From an uncultured Bdellovibrionales bacterium (GTDB taxonomy: Bacteria > Patescibacteriota > Minisyncoccia > Moranbacterales > UBA1568): a stretch of 64,000 nt of DNA. Positions 4,580 through 59,023 of the stretch are shown here, in pieces. The notes under the pieces are model-generated. The model made no database searches. It was not told where the DNA came from and worked only from the letters and a program-made list of their open reading frames with translations. Location of the stretch: positions 114,660 to 178,659 of the forward strand of contig CAYLJX010000002.1 in assembly GCA_964384235.1 (NCBI GenBank). The letters run 5' to 3'. The position numbers and the translations under genes were made by a program. Position 1 is the first letter of the stretch. Each line of letters starts with the position of its first letter.

Positions 4580-5638
4580 ATGAAAATAGCCGTGTTGGTA
4601 TCGGGCGGGGTGGACAGTTCGGTAGCTCTCCGACTCTTGAAGGACGAGGGTCACGAGCTCACCGCCTTTTACCTCAAAATCTGGCTGGAGGACGAATTGT
4701 CCTTCCTGGGCGAGTGCCCATGGGAGGAGGATTTGTCATACGTGCGGGCCGTGTGCGAGGAGGCCGGTGTGCCGCTCGAGGTCGTGCCGTTCCAAAAGGA
4801 GTACTGGGAGGAAGTAGTGGCCTACGTGATCGACGAGGTGCGATCCGGCCGGACGCCCAACCCGGACATGCTCTGTAATGCCCGGATCAAGTTCGGCGCT
4901 TTCTACGAAGCGTTCGGCAGGGACTACGATAAAGTGGCGACGGGGCATTATGCCTGGACAGAGGAGTACGACGGCAAAACGCTTTTGCGCGTGTCTCCCG
5001 ATCCCATCAAAGACCAGACGTATTTTCTTTCGCAGCTTTCACAGGAACAGGTGAGCAAGGCACTCTTTCCGATCGGGAAATATGAGAAGGGTGAGGTGCG
5101 GAAACTCGCCGAAAAGTATCATCTCCCCAACGCCAAACGAAAAGACAGTCAGGGTATCTGCTTCCTCGGTAAGATTCCCTTCGACAGGTTCCTCGAACAC
5201 CATCTGGGCAAGCGGCCGGGAAAGATCATTGAATACGAGACCAAGAAAGTCTTGGGCGAGCACGACGGTTTCTACTATTACACGGTCGGACAGCGGCGCG
5301 GCATCAGATTGTCAGGCGGGCCGTGGTACGTGGTAGGGAAAAATGCCGAGATGAACGAAGTCTACATCTCACACGGCGAGCACTACGCATTGTCTGCGCG
5401 TGATACGTTCGTGGTCGGAGGAGTGAATTGGATTTCAGGAACCGTACCGGAGAACAAAGATCTCATGGTCAAGGTTCGCCACGGTGCCAAGATGTATCCG
5501 GCGACGGTTGAGTTTCTGGAAAACGATAGGCTGAATATAACTTTAAAAGAAAAAGACCCGGGCGTTGCCGCGGGTCAGTTCGCCGTATTATACGACGGGG
5601 AGTATTGTCTTGGAGGGGGAACCATATTGGAAGGTTAA
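4580..5638 (+). CDS. mnmA: tRNA-specific 2-thiouridylase MnmA
   Basis: N-terminal PP-loop AVLVSGGVDSSVA, catalytic Cys region, typical 352-aa length. Confidence 0.85.
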   Translation: MKIAVLVSGGVDSSVALRLLKDEGHELTAFYLKIWLEDELSFLGECPWEEDLSYVRAVCEEAGVPLEVVPFQKEYWEEVVAYVIDEVRSGRTPNPDMLCNARIKFGAFYEAFGRDYDKVATGHYAWTEEYDGKTLLRVSPDPIKDQTYFLSQLSQEQVSKALFPIGKYEKGEVRKLAEKYHLPNAKRKDSQGICFLGKIPFDRFLEHHLGKRPGKIIEYETKKVLGEHDGFYYYTVGQRRGIRLSGGPWYVVGKNAEMNEVYISHGEHYALSARDTFVVGGVNWISGTVPENKDLMVKVRHGAKMYPATVEFLENDRLNITLKEKDPGVAAGQFAVLYDGEYCLGGGTILEG

Positions 5639-6710: not shown

Positions 6711-6784
6711 TGCTATACTTCAAGTAAAGGATTTTTCTGTCAGTAATTTTGACTTTTGCCTTTTGAATTTTGACTTTCTTTCCT

Positions 6785-7840
6785 ATGCAACTCAAATCTC
6801 TCAATGTCTATTTCTTTTTCCTTCTGTTCCTTGGCGTGGGGGCAGTGGTGTTTTTCATCTTTCAGCCGTTCCTGACCGCCATGGTGGCGGCCGCCATTCT
6901 CGCAGCGCTCTTCGAGCCGACCTATGATACTCTCATGCGGTGGACGCGTGACCGTCGGGGAACGAGTGCGCTCCTCACGTGCCTCCTCGTCATCGCGATC
7001 ATCGTGACGCCGGTTTTCTTCGTCCTCAGTCTCGCGATCGGCGAGGCGAGCACGATCTTCCATTCTTTCGGAGAGGAAACGTCTCTCAAAAAATTCATCG
7101 GACAGAGTGTGGATTTTTTTCGCGGCATCCCGTATCTCAATCTGATCGGTGCGGACACGCTCAATCAGGACCGTATCCTGGACGATATCAAGAACCTGTC
7201 CCAGAACGCGCTCGGACTCCTGCAGGCGGCGTACCAGGGCATCACGCATTTCGTCTTCTGGGTGTTCGTGATGTTTTTCACGCTTTTCTATTTCCTCATC
7301 GACGGGCGGCGGGCAGTAGCGTTCCTCATGCGGCTTTCACCGCTTCGCGACGAGCATGACAAGCTCCTCATCAAGAAGTTCGTCTCCATCAGCCGGGCGA
7401 CGCTCAAGGGAACGCTCGTGGTCGGAGTCGTCCAGGGTTTCCTCGGGGGAGTGGCGTTCTGGATAGCAGGGGTCCCCTCGCCAGCCATCTGGGGGCTTAT
7501 CATGGTGCTCTTCTCGATCATTCCTCTCGTGGGGAGCGCGGCGGTGTGGCTGCCCGCCGGACTCATCATGCTGTTCTTGGGGAACATCTGGCAAGGTATC
7601 TTCATCCTGTCGGTCGGGGCGGGCGTGATCTCGCTCATCGACAATATCCTCCGTCCCAAGCTGGTGGGTCGCGACACGCAGATGCATCCGCTCCTGGTCT
7701 TCTTCGCGACGCTCGGCGGTATCGCGTATTTCGGTCTCCCGGGTTTCGTCATCGGTCCGATCATCGTGTCGCTCTTCATGGCGCTCGGCGAGATCTATGG
7801 TATCGAGTTCCGGAAGCAGCTGAAGGAATATAATGAATAG
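6785..7840 (+). CDS. AI-2E family (UPF0118/PerM-like) transporter
   Basis: 8-TM topology, conserved C-terminal block NILRPKLVG...HPLLVFFATLGGIAYFGLPGFVIGP. ATG at 6785; the track ORF begins at a TTG at 6770. Confidence 0.65.
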   Translation: MQLKSLNVYFFFLLFLGVGAVVFFIFQPFLTAMVAAAILAALFEPTYDTLMRWTRDRRGTSALLTCLLVIAIIVTPVFFVLSLAIGEASTIFHSFGEETSLKKFIGQSVDFFRGIPYLNLIGADTLNQDRILDDIKNLSQNALGLLQAAYQGITHFVFWVFVMFFTLFYFLIDGRRAVAFLMRLSPLRDEHDKLLIKKFVSISRATLKGTLVVGVVQGFLGGVAFWIAGVPSPAIWGLIMVLFSIIPLVGSAAVWLPAGLIMLFLGNIWQGIFILSVGAGVISLIDNILRPKLVGRDTQMHPLLVFFATLGGIAYFGLPGFVIGPIIVSLFMALGEIYGIEFRKQLKEYNE

Positions 7841-8684
7841 CTGGCAGTACATTCCCGAACATATCGACCCGATCGCGTTCACGGTCGGGTTTTTGTCTGT
7901 CCGGTGGTATGCTCTTTTTCTCCTGTTCGGGACAGTTCTGGCCTTTGCGGCGCTGCGGTGGGAAGAGAGAAAAAGAAAGAGGGAGGCTTTGTCGGAAGAT
8001 TCGTTGTGGGACCTTCTCTTGTTCGTTTTTCTCGGTGCGATCGTCGGAGGGAGGATCGGGTATGTGCTTTTTTATGATCTCCCATATTTCCTGGATCACC
8101 CTCTGGCCATCGTTTCGCTGTACGACTTCGAGCGAGAGATATGGACAGGGATCGCCGGGATGAGTTTTCATGGTGGTCTTCTCGGTGCAGCTTTGGCTGT
8201 ATTTCTTTTTGTCCGGAAAACGAAAGAAGGTTTTTGGGCGATAGCCGATCGGTTGGCGCTGGTCGCTCCGCTCGGGATCCTTTTCGGTCGGTTAGGAAAT
8301 TTCATGAACGGCGAACTCTACGGTCGGGTGACGGAGAAACCGTGGGGGATGTATTTTTCCTCCTCGGATACACCCTTTCTTCTCCGACACCCGTCACAGC
8401 TCTACGAGGCTCTGTTGGAAGGAGCGGCACTTTTTGTTCTTCTTTTCATCTTGAAAAAGAAAACGAGTCTGGCCCCTGGTTTGCTTGCAGTGATTTTTCT
8501 CATCGGCTACGCGACGATACGTTTCATGGTCGAGTTTTTCCGTGAACCGGATCTGCAGATCGGCGTCGTGTTCTGCGGTCTGACGATGGGGCAAGGGCTC
8601 TCCTTAGGTATGTTTTTCTCTGGAATCGTCCTTTTCGGATGGCTGAGACGGAGAAAACGTGCTATACTGCCCGAAGTAAACTAG
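7833..8684 (+). CDS. lgt: prolipoprotein diacylglyceryl transferase
   Basis: Lgt signature GRLGNFMNGELYG. Polytopic membrane protein. Start overlaps the upstream stop. Confidence 0.8.
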   Translation: MNSWQYIPEHIDPIAFTVGFLSVRWYALFLLFGTVLAFAALRWEERKRKREALSEDSLWDLLLFVFLGAIVGGRIGYVLFYDLPYFLDHPLAIVSLYDFEREIWTGIAGMSFHGGLLGAALAVFLFVRKTKEGFWAIADRLALVAPLGILFGRLGNFMNGELYGRVTEKPWGMYFSSSDTPFLLRHPSQLYEALLEGAALFVLLFILKKKTSLAPGLLAVIFLIGYATIRFMVEFFREPDLQIGVVFCGLTMGQGLSLGMFFSGIVLFGWLRRRKRAILPEVN

Positions 8685-8856: not shown

Positions 8857-9270
8857 ATGTTTCCAAAAAACATCTGGATCGTGATCGTTCTTGCGCTGGC
8901 GCTCATCGGCGGACTCGTCGTGTGGGGGATGCAGGAAGAAAAGAGCGACGAGACGGCTTCATCCGGCATCACCTACTACTACGGCGAGGGCTGTCCGCAC
9001 TGCAAGGTCATTTCCGAGTTCCTCGAAGCCAACAAGATCGCCGAAAAGGTGCAGTTTACCAAGAAGGAGGTCTGGGCGAACCGCGCCAACGCGCGCGAGA
9101 TGGAAAAGCGTGCCAAGGTCTGCAATCTGGCCTCCAGTGAGACCGGTGTCCCGTTCGTCTTCGACAGGAGCGAGAACAAATGCTATATCGGGGAACCGGA
9201 CGTGAAGGGATTCTTCATGAAAAAGGCCGGCATGGAAACGGAAGCATCGCAGCCTGAAAACAAAGAGTAA
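8857..9270 (+). CDS. membrane-anchored thioredoxin-fold protein with CPHC active site (putative extracytoplasmic thiol-disulfide oxidoreductase)
   Basis: N-terminal TM helix, then YYYGEGCPHCK (CxxC) and a second Cys later. Confidence 0.55.
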   Translation: MFPKNIWIVIVLALALIGGLVVWGMQEEKSDETASSGITYYYGEGCPHCKVISEFLEANKIAEKVQFTKKEVWANRANAREMEKRAKVCNLASSETGVPFVFDRSENKCYIGEPDVKGFFMKKAGMETEASQPENKE

Positions 9271-9477
9271 CGGGTATTCGGTCCCAGGGCCCGCCCGCAA
9301 CGATTCGCGTAGCGATTCGGGCAGGCAAGCCCTGGACTCAATCCCTCCGCGGCCAGCCTCGCCGGCTAGGCGGGCAAGCCGCGGGGTATTGAACCCGATT
9401 TTACCAGCGCTCCGCTCGGAAACGAAAGCAAGCCTTCGTTTCACTCGCTACACTTGGTAATAATCGCATCGCTTTCA

Positions 9478-10443
9478 ATGCAATCGCAATCTTCTTTACA
9501 TCGGAGGGAGAACAGAAGAAGAAAACCGTCGCTCGACATGGTGTCCGGCAGCGGAGTGTCTTCGCGGATGGTGATCCTTCCATCAGGGAAGCGACCGGTA
9601 CAACTGACCGTACCGACACGTCGCGGTCTGGACGGCGCCCACTCCAACCGGTCTTTTCTGGCTGATCTTAAGGGTCAGTCCCCGTGGGATTCCGTCCGTC
9701 GTCTGCGGCGCAAGGCGGAACTTTTTTTCCGACGGACACGGCGGGCGCTTCGGCGGATCACCCCGGATCTCGCCCCTAAAAGGGCACTCTACGCCTCGCT
9801 CATGGGCGGTGTCGCGTTCGGTATCGTCTCCATGGCGTTCATCGAACATTTTTTCGGACCAGGCGTCTTTGCCCGCTCGGGGGAACCGGTCCAGTCTCAG
9901 GCAGTGGAGACGACAGCGGTCGTTCCGGAGACCTCTGTCGTCGCGGATGCGGAGGTCGGGAAAGTTCCGTACGACGGCGAGAGTGATATTTTCCTTGAGT
10001 ATTTCGATGAGGCGGCCAAGGAGGAGTACGAGGACAACATCCGCCGGATCGTGAAGGGCTATCCGATCGAATCGATGCTCCCGTATATCTTCGAGAAGGA
10101 TCGGATCGTCGCCGCTTTCCTCATCGGTATCGCCAAGAAGGAGAGCAACTGGGGCAAGCGCGTGCCGGTCCTCGACGGTCAGGACTGCTTCAATTACTGG
10201 GGGTACCGGGGAGTGCGTCGCATGATGGGAACGGGCGGACACACCTGTTTCAACAGCCGAAAGGATGCCGTGGATACGGTCGCCAAGCGTATCGAGAAGT
10301 TGGTCTATTCGGAGAAGCTCAATACGCCCGAAAAGCTCATCGTGTGGAAATGCGGATTCAGCTGTGCCGGCCACAGCCGGGAGAGCGTCAAGAAATGGAT
10401 CAGTGATGTTGATATGTATTACGAACAGTTGAAGGAAGAATAA
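9478..10443 (+). CDS. membrane-anchored hypothetical protein, paralog A, with a conserved Cys-containing C-terminal domain (possibly a divergent GH73/lysozyme-like fold)
   Basis: TM helix followed by a C-terminal domain of about 150 aa: GYPIESM...IGIAKKESNWGKRVP...DCFNYWGYRG...VWKCGFSCAGHSRESVKKWISDV. This domain is shared with the next gene. First ATG at 9478 (the track ORF starts at a TTG at 9454). Confidence 0.55.
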   Translation: MQSQSSLHRRENRRRKPSLDMVSGSGVSSRMVILPSGKRPVQLTVPTRRGLDGAHSNRSFLADLKGQSPWDSVRRLRRKAELFFRRTRRALRRITPDLAPKRALYASLMGGVAFGIVSMAFIEHFFGPGVFARSGEPVQSQAVETTAVVPETSVVADAEVGKVPYDGESDIFLEYFDEAAKEEYEDNIRRIVKGYPIESMLPYIFEKDRIVAAFLIGIAKKESNWGKRVPVLDGQDCFNYWGYRGVRRMMGTGGHTCFNSRKDAVDTVAKRIEKLVYSEKLNTPEKLIVWKCGFSCAGHSRESVKKWISDVDMYYEQLKEE

Positions 10444-10584
10444 GAGTTTTTGTTTTTTGGTACATTCCCTAAGAAAAGGGAAAATTGAAAAAAGTAAGAG
10501 AATAATATTGCTTTAATAAGCCATTTTTCGTGAGAAAAGAGGCTTTTTTGTTGACGGGAAGGCGGAAATCTGGTATCCTCGGAA

Positions 10585-11400
10585 ATGCACCCTATGGATG
10601 CAAACGACGATAAGGGTAACTTGGGAGGGTACCTGTCACAACTGAAAAGATCGGTTTCAAAGCTGCTCGCACAATCGGGAAGAGACGTCTTCCTTTACGG
10701 CGTGGCGGCTTTTTTCGTTGGGACCGGAACATTGGGAAATTTGCCACCTATAGCCCTTTCCAAGGCTGATCAGGGTCAGGAAACCGCCTTAAAACAGGAC
10801 CAACCGGCGTCTTCGCTCAGTACGGAAGAAGAACTGTGTCTGTGGAAACGGGATCTGGCGTTCTTTTCCCGTCTGGGAGAAGAGGATCTTTACCGGCCGG
10901 AAACGGTCGATTGCAGCCAGGATACGGATCAGGAGGAAAAAGAAGGGGGAAACGCTCTTTCTTCGGAAGAGAAGGATGCGGCAAGTCTGATCGACGGTCT
11001 GGTCGCCGGCTATCCTATCGAGGCCATGACGGATTCGATCGCGAAGTATGACCGTGATATCGCCGGTCTCATCATCGGCATCGCCAAGAAGGAGAGCAAC
11101 TGGGGCAAGCGCGTGCCGCGAGCTTCAGACGGGAGCGACTGTTTCAACTATTGGGGGTACAAGGGTGCGGGGAGCCGCGGGATCGCCATGGGACACGGCT
11201 GTTTCGGCAGTCCCGAGGAAGCGGTCCAGGCCGTCGGGAACCGTCTGACGGAACTCGTCGCGAAACGAAACGCTGATAGCGATCCGAAGAACATGATCGT
11301 CTGGAAGTGCGGATCAAGCTGTGCCGGTCACAGTCCTGAGAGCGTCAAGAAATGGATCAGTGACGTGGAACAATACTATCGTCAGATCGCCAGGAATTGA
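10585..11400 (+). CDS. membrane-anchored hypothetical protein, paralog B of the upstream gene
   Basis: Same C-terminal domain. A 38-nt block atcgccaagaaggagagcaactggggcaagcgcgtgcc is identical in both genes. Confidence 0.55.
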   Translation: MHPMDANDDKGNLGGYLSQLKRSVSKLLAQSGRDVFLYGVAAFFVGTGTLGNLPPIALSKADQGQETALKQDQPASSLSTEEELCLWKRDLAFFSRLGEEDLYRPETVDCSQDTDQEEKEGGNALSSEEKDAASLIDGLVAGYPIEAMTDSIAKYDRDIAGLIIGIAKKESNWGKRVPRASDGSDCFNYWGYKGAGSRGIAMGHGCFGSPEEAVQAVGNRLTELVAKRNADSDPKNMIVWKCGSSCAGHSPESVKKWISDVEQYYRQIARN

Positions 11401-11507
11401 TCGTGATCGATCCAGTTTGGATTTTCGAGGCCGCTCCTGTTCAGGGAGCGGCTTTTTGTTTGGAGTTACGGTATAATATAATAGAATCGTAACTTTTTTC
11501 TTTCGGT

Positions 11508-12443
11508 ATGCTCTGGATACCCGTGGCGCTTCTCGGATACTTTTTTAATGCGGTATCCGCCTTGTTTGACAAATACCTTCTCTCCGATCGGATCCCGACG
11601 CCTTCGGTGTACGCCTTTTTCGTCTCGATCTTCAGTCTGTTCGCATTCCCTTTCGTCTTTTTCGGTTTCCAGTTTTTCGATTGGGAATCGACGATGCTGT
11701 TTCTTCTCTCGGGGGCGCTCTTTCTGTACGGATTGGTCGCGTTTTATGCGGCCGTGAAGCGTCATGAGATCTCCCGTATCGCCCCGTTGGTCGGGGTAGT
11801 CATCTCTTTGGTGGCTCTTCTCTCGGCATCGGTCCCGGCCCTTCCTGAGACGGGGTCGGCGGATTCGATCCAGATGCTCTCGCTCGTTCTGCTCATCGCC
11901 GGCGGATTCCTCATCGCCTTTGATCTGCCGTTCCGTCCCGGTGAACGCATCCCGGTCTATGTACTGGTAGCCGGAGTGCTCATGGCAGTCTCCCTCATCC
12001 TTCTCAAGATCGGATACGCGCAAGCGAATTTCATAAGCGGTCTCGTCTGGTCCCGCCTCGGGATATTCGTGGCAGGCATGAGTCTCTTGCTGGTCCCGGT
12101 GTTCCGGCGAGAGATTCTCTCCGCATGTCGGAAGACGTCGGAGAAACCCCGGGCGAGCGCCGGTACCGGCCTCTGGTTCGTCGTCAACAAGACCTGTGCC
12201 GGTGTCGCGTCGTTTCTCATAAGTTACGCGACGTTCCTGGGTCCGGTCACGTTCGTCCAGGCTCTTTCCGGCATGCAGTATGTGTTTCTCCTGGCGCTCG
12301 CGCTCCCGCTCTCCTTCCGGTTTCCCCGCGTGTTCGACGAGAAGCTCTTCTTCTGGGATTGGTTTCAGAAAGTCATCGCCATCCTCCTGATCGCGTTCGG
12401 TCTCTGGCTTGCCGCGACGAACGGGGTAAAACTCTTGATTTAA
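11508..12443 (+). CDS. polytopic integral membrane protein (DMT/EamA-like, uncertain)
   Basis: About 10 predicted TM helices, no soluble domain. TATAAT at about 11472-11477 upstream. Confidence 0.45.
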   Translation: MLWIPVALLGYFFNAVSALFDKYLLSDRIPTPSVYAFFVSIFSLFAFPFVFFGFQFFDWESTMLFLLSGALFLYGLVAFYAAVKRHEISRIAPLVGVVISLVALLSASVPALPETGSADSIQMLSLVLLIAGGFLIAFDLPFRPGERIPVYVLVAGVLMAVSLILLKIGYAQANFISGLVWSRLGIFVAGMSLLLVPVFRREILSACRKTSEKPRASAGTGLWFVVNKTCAGVASFLISYATFLGPVTFVQALSGMQYVFLLALALPLSFRFPRVFDEKLFFWDWFQKVIAILLIAFGLWLAATNGVKLLI

Positions 12444-12468: not shown

Positions 12469-12616
12469 CTCTCCAGGCAAAGTCTTCCTTTTCGGAGTCG
12501 CTCGCCCGTCCGGCGTACGGGCTCCCTCCTGAAGCTCCTTCGCTCTCCTCCTTGCCAGTCGGAACCATGCCCGCTTTCGGATCTTCAAGACTCCGAAAAG
12601 GAATCTTTGCCTTTCG
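12469..12616 (+). repeat. structured inverted-repeat element, copy 1 (arms about 23 bp, conserved core hairpin)
   Basis: Arms ggcaaagtcttccttttcggagtc ... gactccgaaaaggaatctttgcc. Core has gaggagcgaaggagcttcaggag and hairpin gcccgt-ccggcgt-acgggc. A second copy lies in inverse orientation at about 51291-51440. Confidence 0.6.
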
Positions 12617-12636
12617 TTCATTCCTTATATAAAAAC

Positions 12637-13644
12637 ATGCACCCAGATTGGAAATATCTCTTCAGGATTCTCTACTTTTCGGTATTGTCCGTGCTGTTCG
12701 TCGTGTTTGTGGTGTTCGCGTATTTCAACCTTTCCGGACCGGCACCGCGTGAGGATGCGAAACTTGGCGTCACGTTCTCATCGCGCTACGCCACCGACCT
12801 CGGTCTCGATTGGCACGAGACCTATCTCGCGCTTCTCGATGATATGGGCGTGAAAAAGCTCCGCATCCCGGTGTATTGGGATCTGGTGGAAAAGAATCCG
12901 GGCGAATATGACTATGCCGATGTCGATTGGCAGCTCGATGAGGCGGCGAAACGTCATGCCGATGTGATCCTTTCTATCGGTCAGCGGGTGCCGCGTTGGC
13001 CGGAATGCCATATTCCGCAGTGGGCCATGTCCGATACGGCCATCCGGCAGCAGGCGCTGCTTCGGCACCTGGAGAGAACCGTGGAGCGCTACAGAGACCG
13101 CGGCGAGATCGTCACGTGGCAGGTCGAGAACGAACCGTTCCTGACGTTCTTCGGCGAGTGTCCTCCGCTCCAAAAGGAATTCCTCGAACAGGAAGTGGCG
13201 CTGGTGAAAAATCTCGATACGCGACCGGTGCTCCTCACGGACAGCGGGGAATTGTCGCTGTGGTTCCGGGCGGCCAAGCGAGGCGACGTCTTCGGGACGA
13301 CCATGTACCGGCATATCTACAAGGACGGCATCGGATATTTCACCTATCCCGTGGGACCCAATTTTTTCCTGTTCAAGGAATGGCTGACGCGACTCCTCAC
13401 CGATCAGGAACATTTCCTCGTCATCGAGTTGCAGGCGGAACCGTGGGCCAACGGATGGGTAGGAACCCTGCCGCTTGAGGAGCAATTCCGGACGATGGAC
13501 GAGAAAAAACTTCAGGAGAATGTGGAGTACGCGAAGCGCGTCGGCTTCCCGGAGATCTATCTCTGGGGCGGGGAGTGGTGGTATTTTCTCAAGACAAAAA
13601 AAGACTATCCGGCCGTGTGGGAGACCGCGAAAGAACTGTTTTAG
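12637..13644 (+). CDS. membrane-anchored glycoside hydrolase, clan GH-A (GH42/GH35/GH5-like TIM barrel)
   Basis: N-terminal TM helix. WDLVEKNPGEYDY...DWQLDEA and a putative acid/base motif WQVENEP. ATG at 12637, downstream of the repeat element. Confidence 0.5.
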   Translation: MHPDWKYLFRILYFSVLSVLFVVFVVFAYFNLSGPAPREDAKLGVTFSSRYATDLGLDWHETYLALLDDMGVKKLRIPVYWDLVEKNPGEYDYADVDWQLDEAAKRHADVILSIGQRVPRWPECHIPQWAMSDTAIRQQALLRHLERTVERYRDRGEIVTWQVENEPFLTFFGECPPLQKEFLEQEVALVKNLDTRPVLLTDSGELSLWFRAAKRGDVFGTTMYRHIYKDGIGYFTYPVGPNFFLFKEWLTRLLTDQEHFLVIELQAEPWANGWVGTLPLEEQFRTMDEKKLQENVEYAKRVGFPEIYLWGGEWWYFLKTKKDYPAVWETAKELF

Positions 13645-13648
13645 GATC

Positions 13649-14191
13649 ATGAGTCAGGAATTACGGATCAGGAATGACAGGGAGAAGAGAGATCAGGACC
13701 GGCTGGTGTTGATCGTCCACAATGTCCGAAGCGCCCACAACGTCGGGGCGCTCTTTCGGACGGCGGACGGAGCGGGGGTGCGGAGGATATTCCTCACCGG
13801 GTACACGCCGACACCACCGAAAAAGAACGCACCCTACCTGACCTCGGCTGAAAAGTCTTTCAAAAAGACGGCTCTGGGTGCGGAAGAGGGGATTTCGTGG
13901 AAGAAACAAGCGACGCTCAAGCCGATAGTGGATAGGTTGAGAGCGGAAGGGTTCCGGATCATAGCTTTGGAACAGACAGCCGGGAGTGTCGGATACGATA
14001 CTTTCCCGTATCCCGAACGGGTGGCGCTCGTTGTCGGCAACGAGCCGAACGGTATCGATACCAGGATCCTCAGGCAGTGCGACAGTATCGTGGAAATCCC
14101 GATGCGCGGTATCAAGAATTCCCTCAATGTCGCGGTGGCAGCCGGCGTTGCTCTCTACCGGATTCGGAGTACAATGGAAGAAAAGGGCTAA
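13649..14191 (+). CDS. SpoU/TrmH-family RNA 2'-O-methyltransferase
   Basis: LIVHNVRSAHNVGALFRTADGAGV, ...VVGNEPNGI..., IPMRGIKNSLNVAVAAGVALY (SPOUT knot motifs). Confidence 0.7.
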   Translation: MSQELRIRNDREKRDQDRLVLIVHNVRSAHNVGALFRTADGAGVRRIFLTGYTPTPPKKNAPYLTSAEKSFKKTALGAEEGISWKKQATLKPIVDRLRAEGFRIIALEQTAGSVGYDTFPYPERVALVVGNEPNGIDTRILRQCDSIVEIPMRGIKNSLNVAVAAGVALYRIRSTMEEKG

Positions 14192-14208
14192 AACCAACAC
14201 ATAACCGT

Positions 14209-15558
14209 ATGTCTGTCCGAAGAAGCCGTCTTTCGAGGTCCGAGAAGGAGGTCTTTTTGTTTCTTTTGTTCGTGCTGAGCGCCTTTGTCGGGCTTCGGGC
14301 GGTCCTCGGGGAATCGACCACTTCGACCACTACCTCCACCTCGTCCTCGGGCGAGACGGTCTCTTCGACGAGTACGTCTACAGCCACCTCGACATCGACT
14401 TCTTCCGGAGGAACGGCGACTACAACCACGTCTTCGACGACCTCTTCCGTTTCGGGAACGAATATCACCGTGCCGTTGTCGACATCGCTTTCTTCTCCCA
14501 CGCTTTCCATTCCTACGGTCACCTCGGAGACGTTGCTGAAGCAGCTGGAGGAATCGGGACTTAGCGGAACGGACTCCTCGCTCTCTTCCACTCCGACACC
14601 TTCCGCATCCACTCCGACGATTTCTCCAACTACAACCACTTCTCCGACCTACCAACCGACGACAGTGACCTCCCCGACCTATCAGCAGACACAGACACTG
14701 CCGACGTATCCGACAAATACCGTGTCCGGTCAGTATATGCTCACCCAGCCGGTCGTCGGAACCGAACCGCTTCCGAGACGGCAGGAATGGGAAGGTAGTC
14801 CTCTTTCGGAAATCGAGAAAATACGGAATGCCAAGGAAGCGGAGCAGATATCGAAACCGCTTTCAATCATAGACCGGGCCCGTTTCGAGAATTCCGAGGA
14901 GGACACGGATCATGACGCGATTCCCGACGTCGAGGAGATGCGTCTCGGGACCGACCCGCGTTCAGCGGACACCGATCGTGACGGATATGTCGACGGTGCG
15001 GAGGTCTTCGGTGGATACGACCCCAAGGTTTTTTCTCCGGGCGACGGGCGCGACAAGGTCGTTTTCGAATCCGTGAAGGAGAAAAAGGATGCGGCGCCCC
15101 GCACCGACAGGCAATATACGGTACAGGCAGTGGAGCATGCCGTCTCGACGACGGACCCGACGAAGAGCGTGATACGTCTCTCGGGGAAAGGCGCGCCGAA
15201 CCGCCTGATCACGCTCTATATCTACAGCGATCCGATCATCGTGACGGTCAAGACGGATGCCGAAGGCAACTGGGTCTACGATCTCGACAAAGAACTACCG
15301 GATGGGGACCACGAGGTCTATGTCGCGGTGACGGACAATGTCGGGAAAGTGGCTGCCGTGAGCGAACCGCTTCCCTTCGTCAAGACGGCTCAGGCGGTCA
15401 CGGTGAAACCGACGTCGGCCATGCAGGCGAAACAGAATGTCTCGCCGCTGGAGCGTTCGCGGGCCCGGTTCATCCTGGTCGGTGTCGTCGTGACGCTCAC
15501 GTTCCTGGGGCTGGCGATCGTGTTCATCGGCCGCCGTTCATCCCTTTTCACGCGCTAG
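14209..15558 (+). CDS. Ser/Thr-rich surface protein with thrombospondin-type-3-like Ca-binding DxDxDG motifs and a C-terminal TM anchor
   Basis: Signal/TM at the N-terminus, about 150 aa of S/T/P low complexity, DTDHDAIPDVEEMRLGTDPRSADTDRDGYVDGAEV, and a C-terminal hydrophobic helix before the stop. Confidence 0.5.
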   Translation: MSVRRSRLSRSEKEVFLFLLFVLSAFVGLRAVLGESTTSTTTSTSSSGETVSSTSTSTATSTSTSSGGTATTTTSSTTSSVSGTNITVPLSTSLSSPTLSIPTVTSETLLKQLEESGLSGTDSSLSSTPTPSASTPTISPTTTTSPTYQPTTVTSPTYQQTQTLPTYPTNTVSGQYMLTQPVVGTEPLPRRQEWEGSPLSEIEKIRNAKEAEQISKPLSIIDRARFENSEEDTDHDAIPDVEEMRLGTDPRSADTDRDGYVDGAEVFGGYDPKVFSPGDGRDKVVFESVKEKKDAAPRTDRQYTVQAVEHAVSTTDPTKSVIRLSGKGAPNRLITLYIYSDPIIVTVKTDAEGNWVYDLDKELPDGDHEVYVAVTDNVGKVAAVSEPLPFVKTAQAVTVKPTSAMQAKQNVSPLERSRARFILVGVVVTLTFLGLAIVFIGRRSSLFTR

Positions 15559-15561
15559 GCC

Positions 15562-16920
15562 ATGGTCACGGAGGCGTTCAACAGAGGCATCGAATTCACC
15601 AGGAAGAATCCGACGATTCTTTACTCGCTTTTTTTGATCGTCGCCATCACGGGGGCGCTCTTTTTCAACAGCTACTATTCGCTCCAGAAATTTCAGCTGA
15701 CCGCCGACGCCCTTCTCAAGAGCAAGGCGATCCTGGCTGAGAACGTTTTCCGGGTCGTCGGAGAGGATCTCTTCGCTCAAGTCTCCCGGTTGCAGGAAAA
15801 GCTCGATCGGGTGAAGGAGGAGAACGGCGATGTGACGGAGATCACCGTCTTCGTCCGGGAGTCGGAGAGCGCGTCGTTTCGGGTCGCGGCTTCCACCGAT
15901 CATGAGGGCGTAGGGGAGATGGCCGACGAGACGGCTTTGCCTTACCTCATCGCCTGGCAGGACGCCCGCGTCGTCTCGGCTTTTTTGACGAACGATGACG
16001 ATCGGCGGTACTGGAACGTGGTGAAAAAGGTGACGGATCTGGAAGGGCGGGCCTTGGGGTTGGTGCTGTTTCAGTTGTCCCTGGAAGAGCACGATGCCTT
16101 CGTCGAGAAGGCGATCGATCAGGTGTATCTGGTCGCGATCCTCTCTCTCCTCTTCGTACTCCTGCTTCTGGGAAACCACCTGCGTTTTTTCCGCTATGCC
16201 CTGCGGGCGGCCAAACTGGAAGAGGTGGACCGGATGAAAGACGACTTCATTTCCATGGCGAGCCATGAGCTGAAGACCCCGCTCACCGTGCTTCGCGGCT
16301 ACATCGACCTCCTCCGCAACCAGCCGGAATCGCCGACACCTGAAGCGAAAAAGGAAGTGAAAGGCTATCTGGAAAACATGGACGAATCCATCGGCCGCCT
16401 GAACGTCCTCGTGGAAGACATCCTCAATGTCTCCCGTCTGGAACAGAACCGTCTCCCGATCGTCCTGGAGACGCTCGACCTTTCTCCGATGCTCGGGAAG
16501 CTTTCGCATGAGTTCTCCCTGGTCGCAACGGGGAAATCGCTCGCTTTCGTCTATGAGCCGGTGCCGGTTTCTCCGGTATCGGCCGATCCGGAACGGGTCA
16601 AGCAGATACTCGTGAACCTCCTCGGGAACGCCGTCAAGTATACGATCAAGGGGAAGGTGGAAATGAGCGTCAAGGAAACGGACGAGGAAGTAGTGATCGT
16701 GGTGGCGGACACGGGACTCGGTATCTCTGCGCGGAATATGGAGCATCTGTTCTCGAAGTTCTATCGGGTGAAGACGGCGGATACGGAAAAGATTTCCGGA
16801 ACAGGTCTCGGACTCTGGATTTCCCGGGAGATTGCGCGTAAAATGGGAGGAGACATCACGGTCGAGAGCATCGAGGGCGTCGGGTCACATTTCAGCCTGC
16901 ATCTCAAGAAAAGTTCATAA
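15562..16920 (+). CDS. sensor histidine kinase (no response regulator found in this window)
   Basis: H-box MASHELKTPLTVLRGY. N, G1, G2 boxes: GNAVKYT, DTGLGI, GTGLGLWISREIARKMGG. Two N-terminal TM helices. Confidence 0.8.
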   Translation: MVTEAFNRGIEFTRKNPTILYSLFLIVAITGALFFNSYYSLQKFQLTADALLKSKAILAENVFRVVGEDLFAQVSRLQEKLDRVKEENGDVTEITVFVRESESASFRVAASTDHEGVGEMADETALPYLIAWQDARVVSAFLTNDDDRRYWNVVKKVTDLEGRALGLVLFQLSLEEHDAFVEKAIDQVYLVAILSLLFVLLLLGNHLRFFRYALRAAKLEEVDRMKDDFISMASHELKTPLTVLRGYIDLLRNQPESPTPEAKKEVKGYLENMDESIGRLNVLVEDILNVSRLEQNRLPIVLETLDLSPMLGKLSHEFSLVATGKSLAFVYEPVPVSPVSADPERVKQILVNLLGNAVKYTIKGKVEMSVKETDEEVVIVVADTGLGISARNMEHLFSKFYRVKTADTEKISGTGLGLWISREIARKMGGDITVESIEGVGSHFSLHLKKSS

Positions 16921-18413: not shown

Positions 18414-19568
18414 ATGTTCAAAACTCTCTCTCTCTCTCGTTACCTCGTAAAGCTCGGAGTTTTTCTTGTTATCTTGATAGCGACGACTTCCGTCCAGTAT
18501 GTTCTGGCTGGTAACGGCCAGTCCGGTGTCGGCTGGCTCTGGGGCGGAAGTGATACCGGAACCGTAAAAGATGTCGCTGTCGATCCGAGGAACTACGTCG
18601 CCTCCGGTCCCGGTTGGATCAGCCTCAACAGCAGTGATTGCGATGCCGATAACAACGGTTTCGTCGATGTTTCGTGCGGAGGTAACAATACCTCGACGCC
18701 GTCTATCGATTACGGTGTCAATATTCCGTTGGCCGACGGTGTTCTTTCCGGTTATGCCTGGTCGGATCGTTTCGGCTGGATCAGTTTCAACGCGGCGGAT
18801 GTCACTGGCTGCCCGTCGGGTATTTGCAACGCGAGACGGGTCGGAAGCGCCCTCAAAGGCTGGGCGAGGATTCTTTCTTTGAACGGTACCGGCGATTGGA
18901 AGGGATTCGTAGCTATCGATCAGGCGTCGTCCGGCGGGAGCGTCTCATACAGCGGCGTGAATCTCCCGTCCGTGATGATCCAGGCTGATGACACGCTCTC
19001 CGGGTATATCTATTCCGATGAGGTGGGTTGGATAGATGTTTCCAGAGCGAGCATCCGTACCGTCCCCACGCTCCAGCTCTGCCGAGATGGTGGTTCCACT
19101 CCTTTCGCTCAGGGCGGAGAAACCCGATCCCTTGCTCTCAATCTTCAACCCGCCGCCGGATCAACGGCCAATATGACTACTTTTTTTGACACTACTCCGG
19201 ATTGCTTCGGTACCGACGTCACCATGAGGAGCACCTTCACTGATAATGCTGCCTCCTCTGTGGTCACTATCTCTCCCAACGGCTCCAACCCCAACGTCTT
19301 CATGGGGAATGATGTTCCTGGATCCTCAGCGGCCGGCCAGCAGTCCGCTTCAGAAACCGTCACTGTCTTCTACTCCGGTCAGACCATCACCGTTCCCGTT
19401 ACCGTCATCGAGTTCTGCTCCTCAAACTGCACCGCCGCTATCCAGGCTGGTACGTGCCAAGGTCAATTGCCTAACCCGGTGGTTAAGAACAGCTGTGGTG
19501 GCGATGAACTCAGCTGCCTCGGTACCCGTTCCTGCGACTTCAACTGGAAGGAAGTGGCGCCGCAGTGA
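18414..19568 (+). CDS. secreted Cys-rich repeat protein (three GW-type repeats)
   Basis: Signal peptide. Repeats GPGWISLNSSDCDADN, SGYAWSDRFGWISFNAADV, SGYIYSDEVGWIDVS. A (CT)7 tract sits at codons 4-8. Confidence 0.5.
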   Translation: MFKTLSLSRYLVKLGVFLVILIATTSVQYVLAGNGQSGVGWLWGGSDTGTVKDVAVDPRNYVASGPGWISLNSSDCDADNNGFVDVSCGGNNTSTPSIDYGVNIPLADGVLSGYAWSDRFGWISFNAADVTGCPSGICNARRVGSALKGWARILSLNGTGDWKGFVAIDQASSGGSVSYSGVNLPSVMIQADDTLSGYIYSDEVGWIDVSRASIRTVPTLQLCRDGGSTPFAQGGETRSLALNLQPAAGSTANMTTFFDTTPDCFGTDVTMRSTFTDNAASSVVTISPNGSNPNVFMGNDVPGSSAAGQQSASETVTVFYSGQTITVPVTVIEFCSSNCTAAIQAGTCQGQLPNPVVKNSCGGDELSCLGTRSCDFNWKEVAPQ

Positions 19569-19632: not shown

Positions 19633-20268
19633 ATGAAGCTCCTCTTTACAAGAGATTTTGCCTATTGGGGGAAAGTGGTCATTTTCGGTGCCGTCTTGGG
19701 TATCGGACTCCAGTTCGCCCACGCCTGGGTGGCTCCGACTTTGGCCCCGCCCAATGGCAATATCGGGCTTAAGAAATATGTTTCGGATTGCAACCAATTT
19801 GCCGTCAATGGCTGGGAAAGCAAAGATGAATGTCTTAAAGACGGTCGGTGGCATTTGGTGCAGTCGACTTCTGGTGGGGCAAACGCCGATCTTATCGCGG
19901 CGATCGGTAGTGGAGCAGAAATACGGATCACCTATGAGGTGGCCGGTGGCGGGGTTGGAACGGCTACAAGGCAGTGTGCGAATGCGTTTATCTATACGCC
20001 GTATGCCTATTGCCAGGGACCGATGCAGTACGGAGGCTCTGTCACGGATACTATCCCGTCCGGGACCCCAGACTACTATACATTTGACAGCGCCGATCCC
20101 CGGCCGCATGCGACGTGGGGTCACATGGGTCTGAATGTCACTCGTTCTGATGGCAGGGTAAAGGGAACGTCTATCGTTCCTCAGATGGACGGAATGCAGA
20201 GAGCCCAGACGACTCTCATGGAAAACACCGGAAGTGTTCCGAGTCTCAAATGGTATGCGAAATACTAA
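19633..20268 (+). CDS. secreted hypothetical protein
   Basis: Signal peptide with AHA cleavage site. No known motifs. Confidence 0.45.
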   Translation: MKLLFTRDFAYWGKVVIFGAVLGIGLQFAHAWVAPTLAPPNGNIGLKKYVSDCNQFAVNGWESKDECLKDGRWHLVQSTSGGANADLIAAIGSGAEIRITYEVAGGGVGTATRQCANAFIYTPYAYCQGPMQYGGSVTDTIPSGTPDYYTFDSADPRPHATWGHMGLNVTRSDGRVKGTSIVPQMDGMQRAQTTLMENTGSVPSLKWYAKY

Positions 20269-20278
20269 CCCGGAAGAT

Positions 20279-20794
20279 ATGAATACTTCTTGTCTTATAG
20301 GTTCTTTCCGGATTTCAGTGGTCGTTTTTAGTGTACTGTCTCTTCTGGCATTTCTCGCCGTAGCGGTTTTCTTTATGAATCGAGGAGGGGGTGATAGCGC
20401 AAAGGAAAAACAGGCCGATCAGGGGATCGCGTGTGTTAACTGTCCCGTTCCAGGATCAGGACAGGATGTGGCGGCTGCGACGTTTTCAGGGAAGGCAGTC
20501 CGGGTGTCTGAAACCGATATCATCGTGGAAGCGGACGGTGTCACGCCACGAACATTCATGATCGATGCCGGGACCAAGGTATCTCGGGAACAGTGCCGGA
20601 AGCTCTCACCAGAGGAGCAGGAAGCTATCCAGCAGGGAACGGTTGGGGGTGTGGTGTCGACCGAGTCTTGTGAGCGCATAGAGGCGGTGAGAGGTGATAT
20701 CGGTGCCGGGCAGACCGTCGTGATCGTTCTTGGTCAGGCGGCCGGCCAGTCTGAGGTTGCTCGTGAAGTCATCATCGCTTTTGATCGGCAGTAG
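20279..20794 (+). CDS. membrane-anchored hypothetical protein
   Basis: TM helix at aa 10-35. ATG at 20279 in the frame of ORF 20234..20794. Confidence 0.4.
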   Translation: MNTSCLIGSFRISVVVFSVLSLLAFLAVAVFFMNRGGGDSAKEKQADQGIACVNCPVPGSGQDVAAATFSGKAVRVSETDIIVEADGVTPRTFMIDAGTKVSREQCRKLSPEEQEAIQQGTVGGVVSTESCERIEAVRGDIGAGQTVVIVLGQAAGQSEVAREVIIAFDRQ

Positions 20795-22114: not shown

Positions 22115-22133
22115 TGTTCCGCGTATTAAAAAG

Positions 22134-22528
22134 TGGAGTTGATGGGAATCGCACCCATGTCCAGGCATGTTTTTCCAAAATAGTCTACAAGCTTAGTGTC
22201 GCTTGGCATGAAAGAGGAGGGTAGAAGCGGACGAAATCCCTCATCAGTCTCTTCTTCTGCAACAGGTCCTGAAAATGAAGAGAAGGAAGATTCTCAGGCT
22301 GCCTCGATGATATGGCACCGGATGACTCGTATCGAGAATAGGAGGTCCGATGGCTCACGCGATTAGGCGCGGGCAAAAGCGAAAGACGGAGCAAACGCCG
22401 AAGCGATCGCGGTCTTGGCCTTGGTGATGAAGTTTGCAGTTATCATCGTGGGAACGAGTTTTACGATCATGTTCCCGAGATCGGCTTGCGTATTTTGAAA
22501 GTACATCCTGTCGAGTCTAGACAACCCC
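22134..22528 (-). ncRNA. ssrA: tmRNA (SsrA)
   Basis: On the minus strand. 5' end GGGGUUGUCUAGACUCGACAGG (tRNA-like 5' half). 3' end ACAUGGGUGCGAUUCCCAUCAACUCCA: T-arm plus acceptor strand pairing with the 5' GGGGUUG, giving a G3:U70 pair. Internal candidate tag frame GCA AAC ... GCC TAA. Directly downstream of smpB on the same strand. Confidence 0.55.
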
Positions 22529-58933: not shown

Positions 58934-59016
58934 GCCGCGGTGGTGGAATGGTAGACACACGGGACTCAAAATCCCGCGATAGCAATATCATGAGAGTTCG
59001 AGTCTCTCCCGCGGCA
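58934..59016 (+). tRNA. tRNA-Leu (anticodon CAA), long variable arm
   Basis: GCCGCGG acceptor, 3-bp D-stem, anticodon loop CUCAAAA, long extra arm, T-arm GAGAG-TTCGAGT-CTCTC, acceptor CCGCGGC plus A. CCA not encoded. Confidence 0.7.
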
Positions 59017-59023
59017 CACCTGA

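Follow-up and report, generated by a model that had tools for sequence, protein, structure and literature searches.

An old tandem pair of GH73-like domain proteins in a conserved envelope gene cluster of Moraniibacteriota

Two adjacent genes of a Moranbacteria genome (candidate phyla radiation), A (9478-10443) and B (10585-11400), both confirmed as open reading frames on the + strand, are best explained as ancient duplicates that carry an exported domain allied to GH73, cleave peptidoglycan and are braced by disulfides, a reading to which we assign a probability of about 0.6. They lie in a window of 64,000 nucleotides, which is the whole stretch of DNA that was analysed. The domain that they share is a very divergent, cysteine-rich relative of the GH73 cell-wall glucosaminidases; the pair represents a known enzyme type in a form specific to this lineage, and not a new kind of system. 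The cell-wall turnover and division enzymes of the candidate phyla radiation are largely unannotated, and here a conserved 'hypothetical' family next to lgt gains a probable function, the cleavage of glycan strands, on the basis of sequence comparison and structural modelling. The practical value is moderate and consists of better annotation and a target for biochemistry; no new biological principle is established.

Gene cluster and layout of the two paralogs

Upstream of the pair lie lgt (7833-8684, + strand), coding for prolipoprotein diacylglyceryl transferase (Pfam PF01790, E 4.8e-69), and a gene for a 137-aa glutaredoxin/thioredoxin-fold protein with a CPHC motif (8857-9270, + strand). 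Downstream follow genes for a conserved 311-aa polytopic membrane protein with roughly 9-10 hydrophobic segments by hydropathy (11508-12443, + strand) and for a glycosidase that is membrane-anchored, clan GH-A-like (TIM-barrel) and bears the motif WQVENEP (12607-13644, + strand), the synteny of both being part of their assignment. The first-pass annotation had placed the pair between these neighbours; all of them were found, and the order AI2E-LGT-(GRX)-DOM-DOM-MEM-GHA is kept in most of 86 related loci of Moraniibacteriota. The neighbourhood of A and B is supported as a conserved envelope cluster. Its lgt gene is a conserved upstream neighbour of the domain family even in distant single-copy lineages, one locus of which (L089) retains the order AI2E-LGT-...-DOM.

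The membrane protein and the glycosidase are fixed downstream neighbours of A and B. Searches of Pfam, NCBIfam and the PDB gave no match for the membrane protein. The glycosidase, in which ENEP is invariant, matches GH42, GH5, GH35 and GH2 weakly in Pfam, and among PDB profiles it matches Endoglucanase H (7vt5, E 2.8e-10) as well as GH35 and PslG. Directly 3' of B, a terminator-like hairpin (11427-11455, + strand) with a 12-bp stem, 7 GC and a T-rich tail, recognised by consensus match only, suggests a transcript end; such sites are no more numerous in this region than in shuffled sequence, and promoter-like sites likewise do not exceed chance there.

Paralog A (321 aa from ATG 9478) may start at ATG 9478 or at TTG 9454, homolog lengths fitting either. 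Its basic N-terminus (24 K/R vs 7 D/E in residues 1-100) is predicted to be cytoplasmic and places 6 K/R within the 15 residues before a TM helix, a positive-inside N-flank. The helix spans residues 103-126 counted from ATG 9478 (nt 9784-9855) and is strongly conserved. It is followed by an acidic linker and by the GH73-like domain at about residues 190-321 (nt 10045-10440), with the putative catalytic Glu222 (nt 10141-10143) and Cys 237, 257, 292 and 296, the only four cysteines of the protein. The A-type marks are YWGYR and WKCG[F/Y]SC.

Paralog B (271 aa) begins with a moderately hydrophobic segment at about residues 35-57, which could serve as a signal anchor or be cleaved off as a signal peptide. 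Its hand-computed Kyte-Doolittle mean over about residues 35-53 is ~1.5, below the TM-scan cut-off of 1.6; the earlier view that both proteins are membrane-anchored holds for A, with its clear TM helix, and is not established for B. An acidic linker with two near-invariant Cys (85 and 110; ELCxW...PC) leads to the GH73-like domain at residues 139-271 (nt 10999-11397), which contains the putative catalytic Glu170 (nt 11092-11094) and Cys 186, 206, 242 and 246, for a total of six cysteines. B-type proteins are marked by YWGYK and WKCGSSC. The N-terminal architectures of A and B differ, and each kind is conserved.

The setting also bears on the substrate. A and B might act on a foreign or non-peptidoglycan glycan, such as a host wall in episymbiosis, chitin-like polymers, or an exopolysaccharide of the cell itself that is handled by the membrane protein and the GH-A glycosidase. 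Patescibacteria are widely regarded as episymbionts (PMC12102498), and the fixed neighbours of the pair include the GH-A glycosidase, with its PslG-like similarity. We consider such a substrate quite improbable, since the strongly conserved TM anchor of A would keep that protein at the surface of its own producer, the terminator-like hairpin sits between B and the membrane protein and glycosidase genes, and the nearest matches of the domain are peptidoglycan enzymes. The genes around the loci that were looked at are housekeeping ones, namely mnmA, mutY-like, lgt, SpoU and those of ribosomal proteins; secretion or mobile-element contexts are not their setting.

The shared domain and its relation to GH73

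The C-terminal ~133 aa of A and B align with 56% identity and 68% positives (E 1e-50) and contain the motifs GYPIE-M, IGIAKKESNWGKRVP, DCFNYWGY-G and VWKCG-SCAGHS-ESVKKWISDV, so that the common domain and the motifs quoted for it earlier are present, at a length of ~133 aa vs the about 150 aa first given. A deep profile search of 1.84 billion representatives retrieved 302 clusters at E<=1e-3, 235 of them at E<=1e-30. The family comprises about 300 clusters at 50% identity, with 316 loci in species-representative genomes, and it is seen almost only in MAGs of Moraniibacteriota (Patescibacteria), as a conserved tandem pair. Literature searches turned up nothing specific on this domain family in Patescibacteria. 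Viral contigs were scanned for relatives of the family and gave none, and a phage-endolysin origin was set aside for that reason.

All conservation counts given for the domain refer to the best 150 of the 302 family representatives (50% identity clusters). Among these, the putative catalytic Glu is conserved in 150/150, and the segment downstream of it reads N-Y-W-G-[Y/F]-[R/K], with N, W and G each in 150/150 and the last position R in 94 and K in 55. The four domain Cys are each present in 149-150 of the 150, which confirms the conserved cysteines first noted in both proteins.

An AF2 model of the B domain built with 150 diverse homologs (pLDDT 96.4, pTM 0.90) shows a lysozyme-like alpha/beta fold with a groove between alpha-lobe and beta-lobe. 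The GH73 or lysozyme-like fold that had been anticipated from the sequence was recovered by Foldseek, the top 6 matches of this model all being FlgJ GH73 structures (prob 0.90-1.00, TM 0.43-0.61), at E-values that are weak (4.5e-3). Comparison of the family with FlgJ by hhalign (prob 82-86%, E 1e-5 to 5e-6) aligns KKESNWG...NYWGYKG with FlgJ ALESGWG...YNLFGVKA and places the invariant Glu on the catalytic Glu of FlgJ, which bears out the likeness to the GH73 catalytic region proposed for AKKESNWG...NYWGYRG. In the model this Glu stands at the C-terminal end of helix 20-34, the place of the catalytic residue in GH73 enzymes, and the counterpart of NYWGY[KR]G in GH73 is the segment N-x-F-G-x-K.

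The profile signals point the same way and stay below the family thresholds. NCBIfam FlgJ muramidase models match B at E 7.9e-6 to 7e-3, below threshold, and PF01832 is the only Pfam family matched repeatedly, by 49 of the best 150 of the 302 representatives, always sub-threshold and at best with E 4.4e-5; the B domain itself scores 13.9 bits against PF01832, whose cut-off is 30.2. Full-length A and B gave nothing in Pfam at E<=1, and scans of the two full-length proteins against Pfam, NCBIfam and PHROGs returned no family at threshold and FlgJ only weakly. Sequence-profile searches of the PDB, run with the full-length alignment and with that of the domain alone, returned only chance matches (ACT domain, gp41); FlgJ scored no better than E about 1.

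In GH73, the proton donor is a strictly conserved Glu at a helix end (AtlA E212, Auto E122, FlgJ E184), the N-x-F-G-x-K segment supplies a conserved Lys and an aromatic residue (AtlA K232 and F229), and the YATD signature holds a conserved Tyr (AtlA Y310) (PMC9108991). A second catalytic Glu on an extended beta-hairpin is confined to clusters 1-2 and is not universal (PMC9108991). The known systems closest to A and B are the GH73 N-acetylglucosaminidases FlgJ, Listeria Auto, E. faecalis AtlA, S. pneumoniae LytB and the C. difficile Ecd09610 domain (8yxk), the last a PF01832/GH73 glucosaminidase domain that is lytic by experiment (PMC9405191). A and B share with them the helix-end catalytic Glu, the N-x-[F/W]-G-x-[K/R] segment and the nature of predicted exported, wall-facing proteins. 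They differ in that about 18 residues of the beta-hairpin tip, including the second Glu, are deleted in the A/B family: hhalign sets an 18-residue deletion exactly at the hairpin tip of FlgJ, and the remaining 13-residue loop holds no conserved Glu or Asp. They differ likewise in the YATD signature, which is absent throughout the family; in its place stand G-S-S-C-A-[G/T]-H (B) and G-[F/Y]-S-C-x-G-H (A). A low-confidence hhalign register equates G-Y-A-T-D with G-[S70/Y42/N10/F8/R8]-S-C-x (counts among the best 150 of the 302 representatives), the Tyr position being Phe in A and Ser in B of the window; the signature is degenerate in A and lost in B. In addition, the four invariant Cys occupy positions where FlgJ, the sole GH73 enzyme compared residue by residue, has none, and the family has been seen almost only in Moraniibacteriota MAGs, occurs as a conserved tandem pair and stays below the Pfam and NCBIfam thresholds.

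Fold model and alignments together support a lysozyme-like fold with GH73 as the nearest known family. Because the Pfam threshold is not reached and YATD is lacking, the domain is called GH73-like here, membership in GH73 not being demonstrable; among the best 150 of the 302 family clusters, no sequence was visible that would bridge to canonical GH73. For CAZy classification it may represent a new subgroup of GH73 or else a sister family, and it would illustrate the extent to which a GH73 core can be trimmed, with no hairpin, no YATD and four Cys added.

The same fold could also serve a lytic transglycosylase, in which a single Glu drives attack of the MurNAc C6-OH and leaves 1,6-anhydroMurNAc ends. 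The domain resembles family-1 lytic transglycosylases/GH23 (Slt70, Cj0843c, MltF, MltE) in its helix-end Glu-Ser and single essential carboxylate: one invariant carboxylate stands at the expected position, the hairpin with the second Glu is deleted, and family-1 SLT domains likewise have the dipeptide ES, as their motif I. The combination that marks SLT/GH23, namely ES, GLMQ and AYNxG together with a Pfam SLT match, was nevertheless not found. GLMQ and AYNxG are missing from the family consensus, no SLT Pfam family recurs among the best 150 of the 302 representatives, and profile searches yield no SLT signal; the sequence signals (NCBIfam FlgJ, PF01832 in 49/150 of the best 150, hhalign) are all GH73/FlgJ, and N-x-W-G-x-[KR] fits the N-x-F-G-x-K of GH73. 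GH73 outranks GH23 in three independent comparisons, and we regard a transglycosylase as unlikely.

On the GH73-allied reading, A and B would each expose a compact lysozyme-fold domain outside the cytoplasmic membrane, derived from or a close ally of the GH73 N-acetylglucosaminidases. Its most likely role would be to cut glycan strands in the peptidoglycan of the producing cell itself, either in wall remodelling or in the separation of daughter cells. The general acid would be the invariant Glu with which the KKES helix ends (Glu222 and Glu170 in A and B, respectively), and the substrate groove would be lined by the conserved segment N-Y-W-G-Y-[K/R]. Since the beta-hairpin with the second Glu is deleted, catalysis would proceed with a single carboxylate, either substrate-assisted, as has been proposed for GH73 clusters that lack the second Glu, or in the manner of lytic transglycosylases.

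Invariant cysteines and the adjacent CPHC protein

The four invariant Cys are probably paired in two disulfides, which would brace both the shortened beta-lobe and the loop replacing the YATD region, and the linker of B holds a third Cys pair. The disulfide dependence first suggested for the module is an inference, and it is weakened by the loci described below that lack the CPHC gene. The protein encoded directly upstream has an N-terminal TM or signal-anchor segment at residues 1-27, CPHC at residues 46-49 (nt 8992-9003), two more conserved Cys (89 and 109) and a GVPF motif of the cis-Pro type. It scores E 4.2e-4 and 20.9 bits against Pfam Glutaredoxin, whose cut-off is 22.9, and E 3.9e-4 against TIGR02196. 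Among 60 homologs, CPHC is present in 59, all four Cys in 59, and VPF is invariant; PF00462 is recorded for several of them. A CxxC motif and a cis-Pro loop on a Trx/Grx fold, the features that define a thiol-disulfide oxidoreductase, are thus found together in this protein.

The oxidase DsbA of E. coli has CPHC as its active-site motif. The window protein is like DsbA in this motif, in its thioredoxin/glutaredoxin-fold signals and in its extracytoplasmic site as predicted from the N-terminal TM segment. Unlike DsbA, it has only 137 aa, too short for the helical insertion domain, it gives no match to PF01323 at E<=1, and its best models are glutaredoxin or YruB-like ones, below threshold, so that the CPHC context alone is held in common with the DsbA family. 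A search for a DsbB or VKOR partner, near the locus and in the window, identified none; all that it returned was another TM+CxxC ORF (20255-20794, CVNC), which has no Pfam family. Redox neighbours stand beside family members elsewhere, among them a DsbA-like CPFC protein, DsbD_2 and Ferric_reduct/ApbE.

Four invariant Cys, two of them as CxxxC, are also compatible with a structural Cys4 zinc site, in which case the CPHC protein would serve another process, for instance envelope thiol homeostasis in general or the maturation of lipoproteins next to lgt, and its adjacency would be incidental. Of about 60 loci in which the interval between lgt and A is visible, about 14 have lgt, A and B and no CPHC gene there; the gene is also absent in distant members, and third paralogs adjoin a P-type ATPase and an HMA/DsbD_2 protein. 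The domain is, however, predicted to be extracytoplasmic, and conserved even-numbered sets of Cys outside the cytoplasm usually form disulfides. Nearby His positions are not invariant (H66 is H in 95 and Y in 53, H110 is H in 116 and D in 20, of the best 150 of the 302 representatives), B carries its extra conserved Cys pair in an otherwise disordered linker, the CPHC protein has a second conserved Cys pair of the kind typical of exported proteins, and in locus L006 a DsbA-like protein follows the pair. We regard a metal site as unlikely.

If the cysteines do form disulfides, the adjacent membrane-anchored CPHC protein would be a likely dedicated thiol-disulfide oxidoreductase for A and B, in an oxidising or a reducing direction. 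This pairing offers a concrete, testable case of dedicated oxidative folding; no description of disulfide-bond machinery in this lineage was found in the literature searchable here. A more elaborate proposal, which we consider a long shot, is that the domain is a minimal GH73 derivative, seen almost only in Moraniibacteriota to date, that lost the carboxylate of the hairpin as well as, in the case of B, the tyrosine of YATD, and relies instead on a disulfide-braced scaffold with a distinct single-Glu chemistry. Its activity would be switched by the dedicated, membrane-anchored CPHC oxidoreductase, and the redox state outside the cytoplasm would thereby gate autolysis or cell separation in these ultra-small bacteria. 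A and B would then not be redundant; one might be catalytic and the other regulatory, for instance.

Age of the duplication and the intergenic element

The longest exact DNA match between A and B is a run of 39 nt on the + strand (10129-10167 in A, 11080-11118 in B), which encodes IAKKESNWGKRVP and includes the catalytic Glu codon; an identical stretch had been reported before, with a length of 38 nt that falls one short. Stretches of 59-74 nt are 86-93% identical between the two genes. From the identical stretch a recent duplication had been put forward, with gene conversion as the alternative. A and B are old paralogs, and the duplication is not recent, because the two form clean orthogroups in 58/58 genomes: the closest relative of every A is the A of another genome, and the same holds for every B (58/58 each). 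Mean identity across the 58 genomes is 77% for A-A, 69% for B-B and 52% for A-B, and A-B identity is about 52% in same-genome and different-genome pairs alike.

The distinct and conserved N-terminal architectures likewise argue against a recent pair. Identity at the nucleotide level does not extend beyond the two stretches that are most conserved, and the same local surplus of codons in common recurs across the 58 genomes, which is the pattern of gene conversion between old paralogs. We therefore hold a recent origin of the pair to be extremely improbable. Gene conversion is the only one of the two options that fits the data, and the 39-nt run is probably a short conversion tract between old paralogs.

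Between the glutaredoxin-like gene and A lies a GC-rich structured intergenic element (9268-9400, + strand) with a predicted RNA fold of -81.7 kcal/mol (z -4.45; 0/200 shuffles as stable). It matched no Rfam family, and a second copy was not found within the window. The element is lineage-specific. The matching gap measures only 5-64 nt in loci L001, L002 and L005.

A tandem gene pair and its conserved envelope cluster

The gene cluster lies on the forward strand and consists of an AI-2E transporter (6770-7840), lgt (7833-8684; PF01790, E 5e-69), a gene for a 137-aa glutaredoxin-like (Grx-like) protein with a CPHC motif (8857-9270), paralog A (9478-10443, with an alternative TTG start at 9454), paralog B (10585-11400), a polytopic membrane protein (11508-12443) and a clan GH-A-like glycosidase (12607-13644). 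The wider surroundings are housekeeping genes (mnmA, a mutY-like gene, SpoU and HAD). A and B are 56% identical over their C-terminal ~133 residues (E 1e-50), and these are the only two copies of the domain in the window. The longest exact DNA match between them is 39 nt (10129-10167 and 11080-11118), encoding IAKKESNWGKRVP; the sequence observation of the first-pass annotation was accurate throughout, apart from the length of this run, which had been given as 38 nt. A terminator-like hairpin lies directly 3' of B (11427-11455), but the number of such matches in the region is not above chance.

Homologs of B numbered 1868 at E<=1e-3 in a word-indexed protein collection; none carried a Pfam domain, all were unnamed or 'hypothetical', and those with organism names all belonged to Candidatus Moranbacteria/Moraniibacteriota. 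When 1.84 billion cluster representatives were searched exhaustively with a profile, a compact family of 302 clusters emerged at E<=1e-3, 235 of them at E<=1e-30. Species-representative genomes contained 316 relatives, and the best 80 of these 316 loci were nearly all from Moraniibacteriota MAGs; a search for domain relatives in viral contigs found none. Many of the species-representative MAGs with this Moranbacteria-type locus bear the title 'uncultured Bdellovibrionales bacterium' (L009, L012, L013 and ~30 others), apparently because their records are taxonomically mislabelled. Some Moranbacteria genomes encode elsewhere a third, shorter paralog of ~210-240 aa with the motif WKCG[F/W][S/D]C[D/S]GH (L061, L062, L065, L068, L071, L074, L079, L082, L083 and L087; match at ~4700-5400 in full-length loci). 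It lies downstream of ApbE, Ferric_reduct and pseudouridine synthase genes in L074, and in L068 a P-type ATPase and an HMA/DsbD_2 protein are close by.

The gene order of the window was found again in other Moranbacteria contigs. In the synteny comparison that had been proposed as a check, the order transporter, lgt, Grx-like gene, two domain genes, membrane protein, glycosidase was dominant among 86 related loci, being complete in 31 and present in many truncated versions. In one related locus (L006, 7105-9920) the usual membrane protein and glycosidase are not downstream of the A-B pair; their place is taken by a Ferric_reduct protein, a protein of 405 aa and a DsbA-like protein with a membrane anchor and a CPFC motif.

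The identical run had been attributed to recent duplication or gene conversion, and the first of these must be rejected. Across 58 non-redundant tandem pairs the nearest relative of each A domain was another genome's A and that of each B another B, with mean identities of 77% (A-A), 69% (B-B) and 52% (A-B, both within and between genomes). Since the proteins sort by type in this way and have separate, conserved N-terminal architectures, the duplication is old. Distant single-copy members still occupy the expected surroundings, one of 451 aa linked to the AI-2E transporter and lgt (L089, 4058-7356) and one in a SpoU/L20/L35/IF3/SmpB neighbourhood (L090, 6001-6759), so the lgt linkage and genomic position are older than the duplication. 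A and B are an ancient tandem pair maintained within a conserved cluster of envelope genes, and not a new kind of system.

Gene conversion fared better. Codon use was compared at sites where A and B have the same amino acid, with same-genome partners set against partners shuffled among genomes (1000 shuffles). In the IAKKESNWGKRVP stretch the same codon was used at 62% of sites in same-genome partners versus 42 +/- 2% in shuffled ones (maximum 48%), and in the rest of the domain at 49% versus 41%. Against the expectation from own-genome codon usage, the observed fractions were 0.62 for 0.41 expected (z 10.4) and 0.49 for 0.43 expected (z 7.4), respectively. The A/B nucleotide identity is more than purifying selection. 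The excess is highest in the two best-conserved stretches (domain columns 19-43 and 91-127), and some derived residues are common to both proteins of one genome (IGIGKK in the L005 pair; WGRR and YWGF in the L006 pair). This codon sharing is most simply read as recurrent short-tract gene conversion between the two old tandem paralogs, which is our candidate explanation.

Relation of the domain to GH73

Pfam, NCBIfam and PHROG scans of full-length A and B gave no family at threshold, and PDB sequence-profile searches with the A/B family were silent. GH73 is nevertheless indicated by four weaker signals, each independent of the others. NCBIfam FlgJ muramidase models matched B residues 114-197 (E 7.9e-6 to 7e-3). 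With hhalign, the family aligned to E. coli FlgJ or to a three-sequence FlgJ alignment with 82-86% probability (E 1e-5 to 5e-6), pairing LIIGIAKKESNWGKRVP...DCFNYWGYKG with FlgJ LILAQAALESGWGQRQI...PSYNLFGVKA, so that the invariant Glu of the KKES block coincides with the catalytic Glu of FlgJ. PF01832 (Glucosaminidase) was the sole Pfam family matched repeatedly, by 49 of 150 representatives scanned singly (best E 4.4e-5), all under the 30.2-bit cut-off (13.9 bits for the window B domain). The six best Foldseek matches in the PDB were all FlgJ. The earlier GH73 lead is thereby supported at both fold and profile level.

Residue conservation was counted in the best 150 of the 302 cluster representatives, in domain numbering. 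Invariant or nearly so are Glu32 and Ser33 in KKES, with Gly36 and Pro40; Asn50, Trp52 and Gly53 in NYWG; Trp101, Lys102 and Gly104 in WKCG, with Trp118; and the cysteines C48 (149/150), C68, C103 and C107 (each 150/150), in agreement with the conserved cysteines first reported for both proteins.

GH73 is defined by a proton-donor Glu that is strictly conserved where a helix ends, by a further Glu carried on an extended beta-hairpin (clusters 1-2 only), by a YATD signature, and by conserved Lys and aromatic residues (PMC9108991); for the Ecd09610 glucosaminidase domain, lysis has been shown experimentally (PMC9405191). The family keeps the Glu at the catalytic position and an N-x-[F/W]-G-x-[K/R] segment, but relative to FlgJ hhalign places an 18-residue deletion exactly at the hairpin tip, and in what is left of the loop no acidic residue is conserved among the best 150 representatives. 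YATD is absent from the family: in a low-confidence hhalign register GYATD falls on G-[S/Y/F]-S-C-x, with Phe or Tyr (Phe in window A) at the Tyr position in A-type and Ser in B-type proteins. Where FlgJ has a helix ahead of YATD, this family has the WKCGxSC loop, and the four invariant cysteines are an addition of this family. The domain is a structurally trimmed and putatively cysteine-braced variant, specific to this lineage, of an enzyme type already known. We have high confidence (roughly 0.9) in the fold assignment and moderate confidence in the predicted peptidoglycan glycosidase function. The finding helps annotation and makes the domain a reasonable target for biochemistry.

Topology, cysteines and the CPHC neighbour

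The first ~100 aa of paralog A are basic (24 K/R versus 7 D/E); a clear TM helix follows at residues 103-126, with 6 K/R among the 15 residues preceding it, and after it come an acidic linker and the domain, which by the positive-inside rule is predicted to face outward. Both proteins had been described as membrane-anchored, which holds for A; the N-terminal segment of B is moderately hydrophobic, falls under the usual TM cut-off, and could serve either as a signal anchor or as a signal peptide that is cleaved off.

All four cysteines of A are inside the domain; B shares these four and carries two more in its linker (ELCxW...PC), near-invariant among B orthologs. In the hhalign register C48 and C68 fall on the two segments forming the base of the GH73 beta-lobe (FlgJ PSYNLFG and FRVY strands), and C103 and C107 are spaced four residues apart in the loop preceding the last helix, making C48-C68 and C103-C107 plausible pairs. 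The invariant Cys columns carry no covariation on pairing, and the rival to disulfides is a Cys4 metal site; the neighbouring histidines vary, position 66 being His in 95 and Tyr in 53, and position 110 His in 116 and Asp in 20, of the best 150 representatives.

With the domain cysteines read as disulfides, the 137-aa protein would be the oxidase for A and B, a role suggested by adjacency, predicted co-localisation and the cysteine content of its neighbours. It has an N-terminal hydrophobic anchor, CPHC at residues 46-49, an invariant GVPF (cis-Pro type) motif and two further conserved cysteines, and it matches the Glutaredoxin and GlrX_YruB models, both sub-threshold. The 60 homologs that could be detected, all from Moranbacteria, carry the annotation 'glutaredoxin'; 59 have CPHC and 59 all four cysteines. 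The oxidase DsbA uses CPHC as its active-site motif, but the 137-aa protein is too short for the DsbA helical insertion domain and has no PF01323 match, which excludes it from the DsbA family. The DsbA-like CPFC and Ferric_reduct proteins downstream of the L006 pair, and the ApbE/Ferric_reduct or DsbD_2/HMA genes flanking third paralogs, are redox neighbours that favour the oxidase role circumstantially. Against it, the Grx-like gene is dispensable at the lgt-A position in about a quarter of loci (absent from ~14). Disulfide dependence, which the first-pass annotation proposed, and this role for the CPHC protein are tentative readings, somewhat short of probable.

Another ORF that combines a hydrophobic N-terminal segment with CxxC (CVNC; 5 Cys) lies at 20255-20794; neither it nor its neighbours (18414-19568 and 19633-20268) has a Pfam family.

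Other features of the window

The 311-aa membrane protein (11508-12443) has no Pfam, NCBIfam or PDB match, is 54-68% identical across five related loci with many invariant residues, and is always paired with the GH-A-like glycosidase. For the latter (12607-13644) the original GH-A label is reasonable, given an invariant ENEP motif and nearest matches to Endoglucanase H (E 2.8e-10), GH35 enzymes and PslG.

The Grx-like gene and A are separated by a gap of 207 nt, which contains a GC-rich element (9268-9400) with a very stable fold (-81.7 kcal/mol, z -4.45, 0/200 shuffles equally stable), with no second copy in the window and no Rfam match. It looks like a lineage-specific insertion, because the same gap is only 5-64 nt in related loci. 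Between SpoU and the HAD hydrolase, whose genes are adjacent in related loci, the window has, at 14077-16920, two further genes. One encodes a 493-aa Ser/Thr-rich surface protein with a Big_13 domain, Asp-rich repeats of calcium-binding-like type and a hydrophobic C-terminal tail, the other a histidine kinase (15562-16920). A tmRNA gene lies on the reverse strand at 22131-22528 (Rfam, 106.7 bits; not reported by ARAGORN), and a tRNA-Leu(CAA) on the forward strand at 58934-59017.
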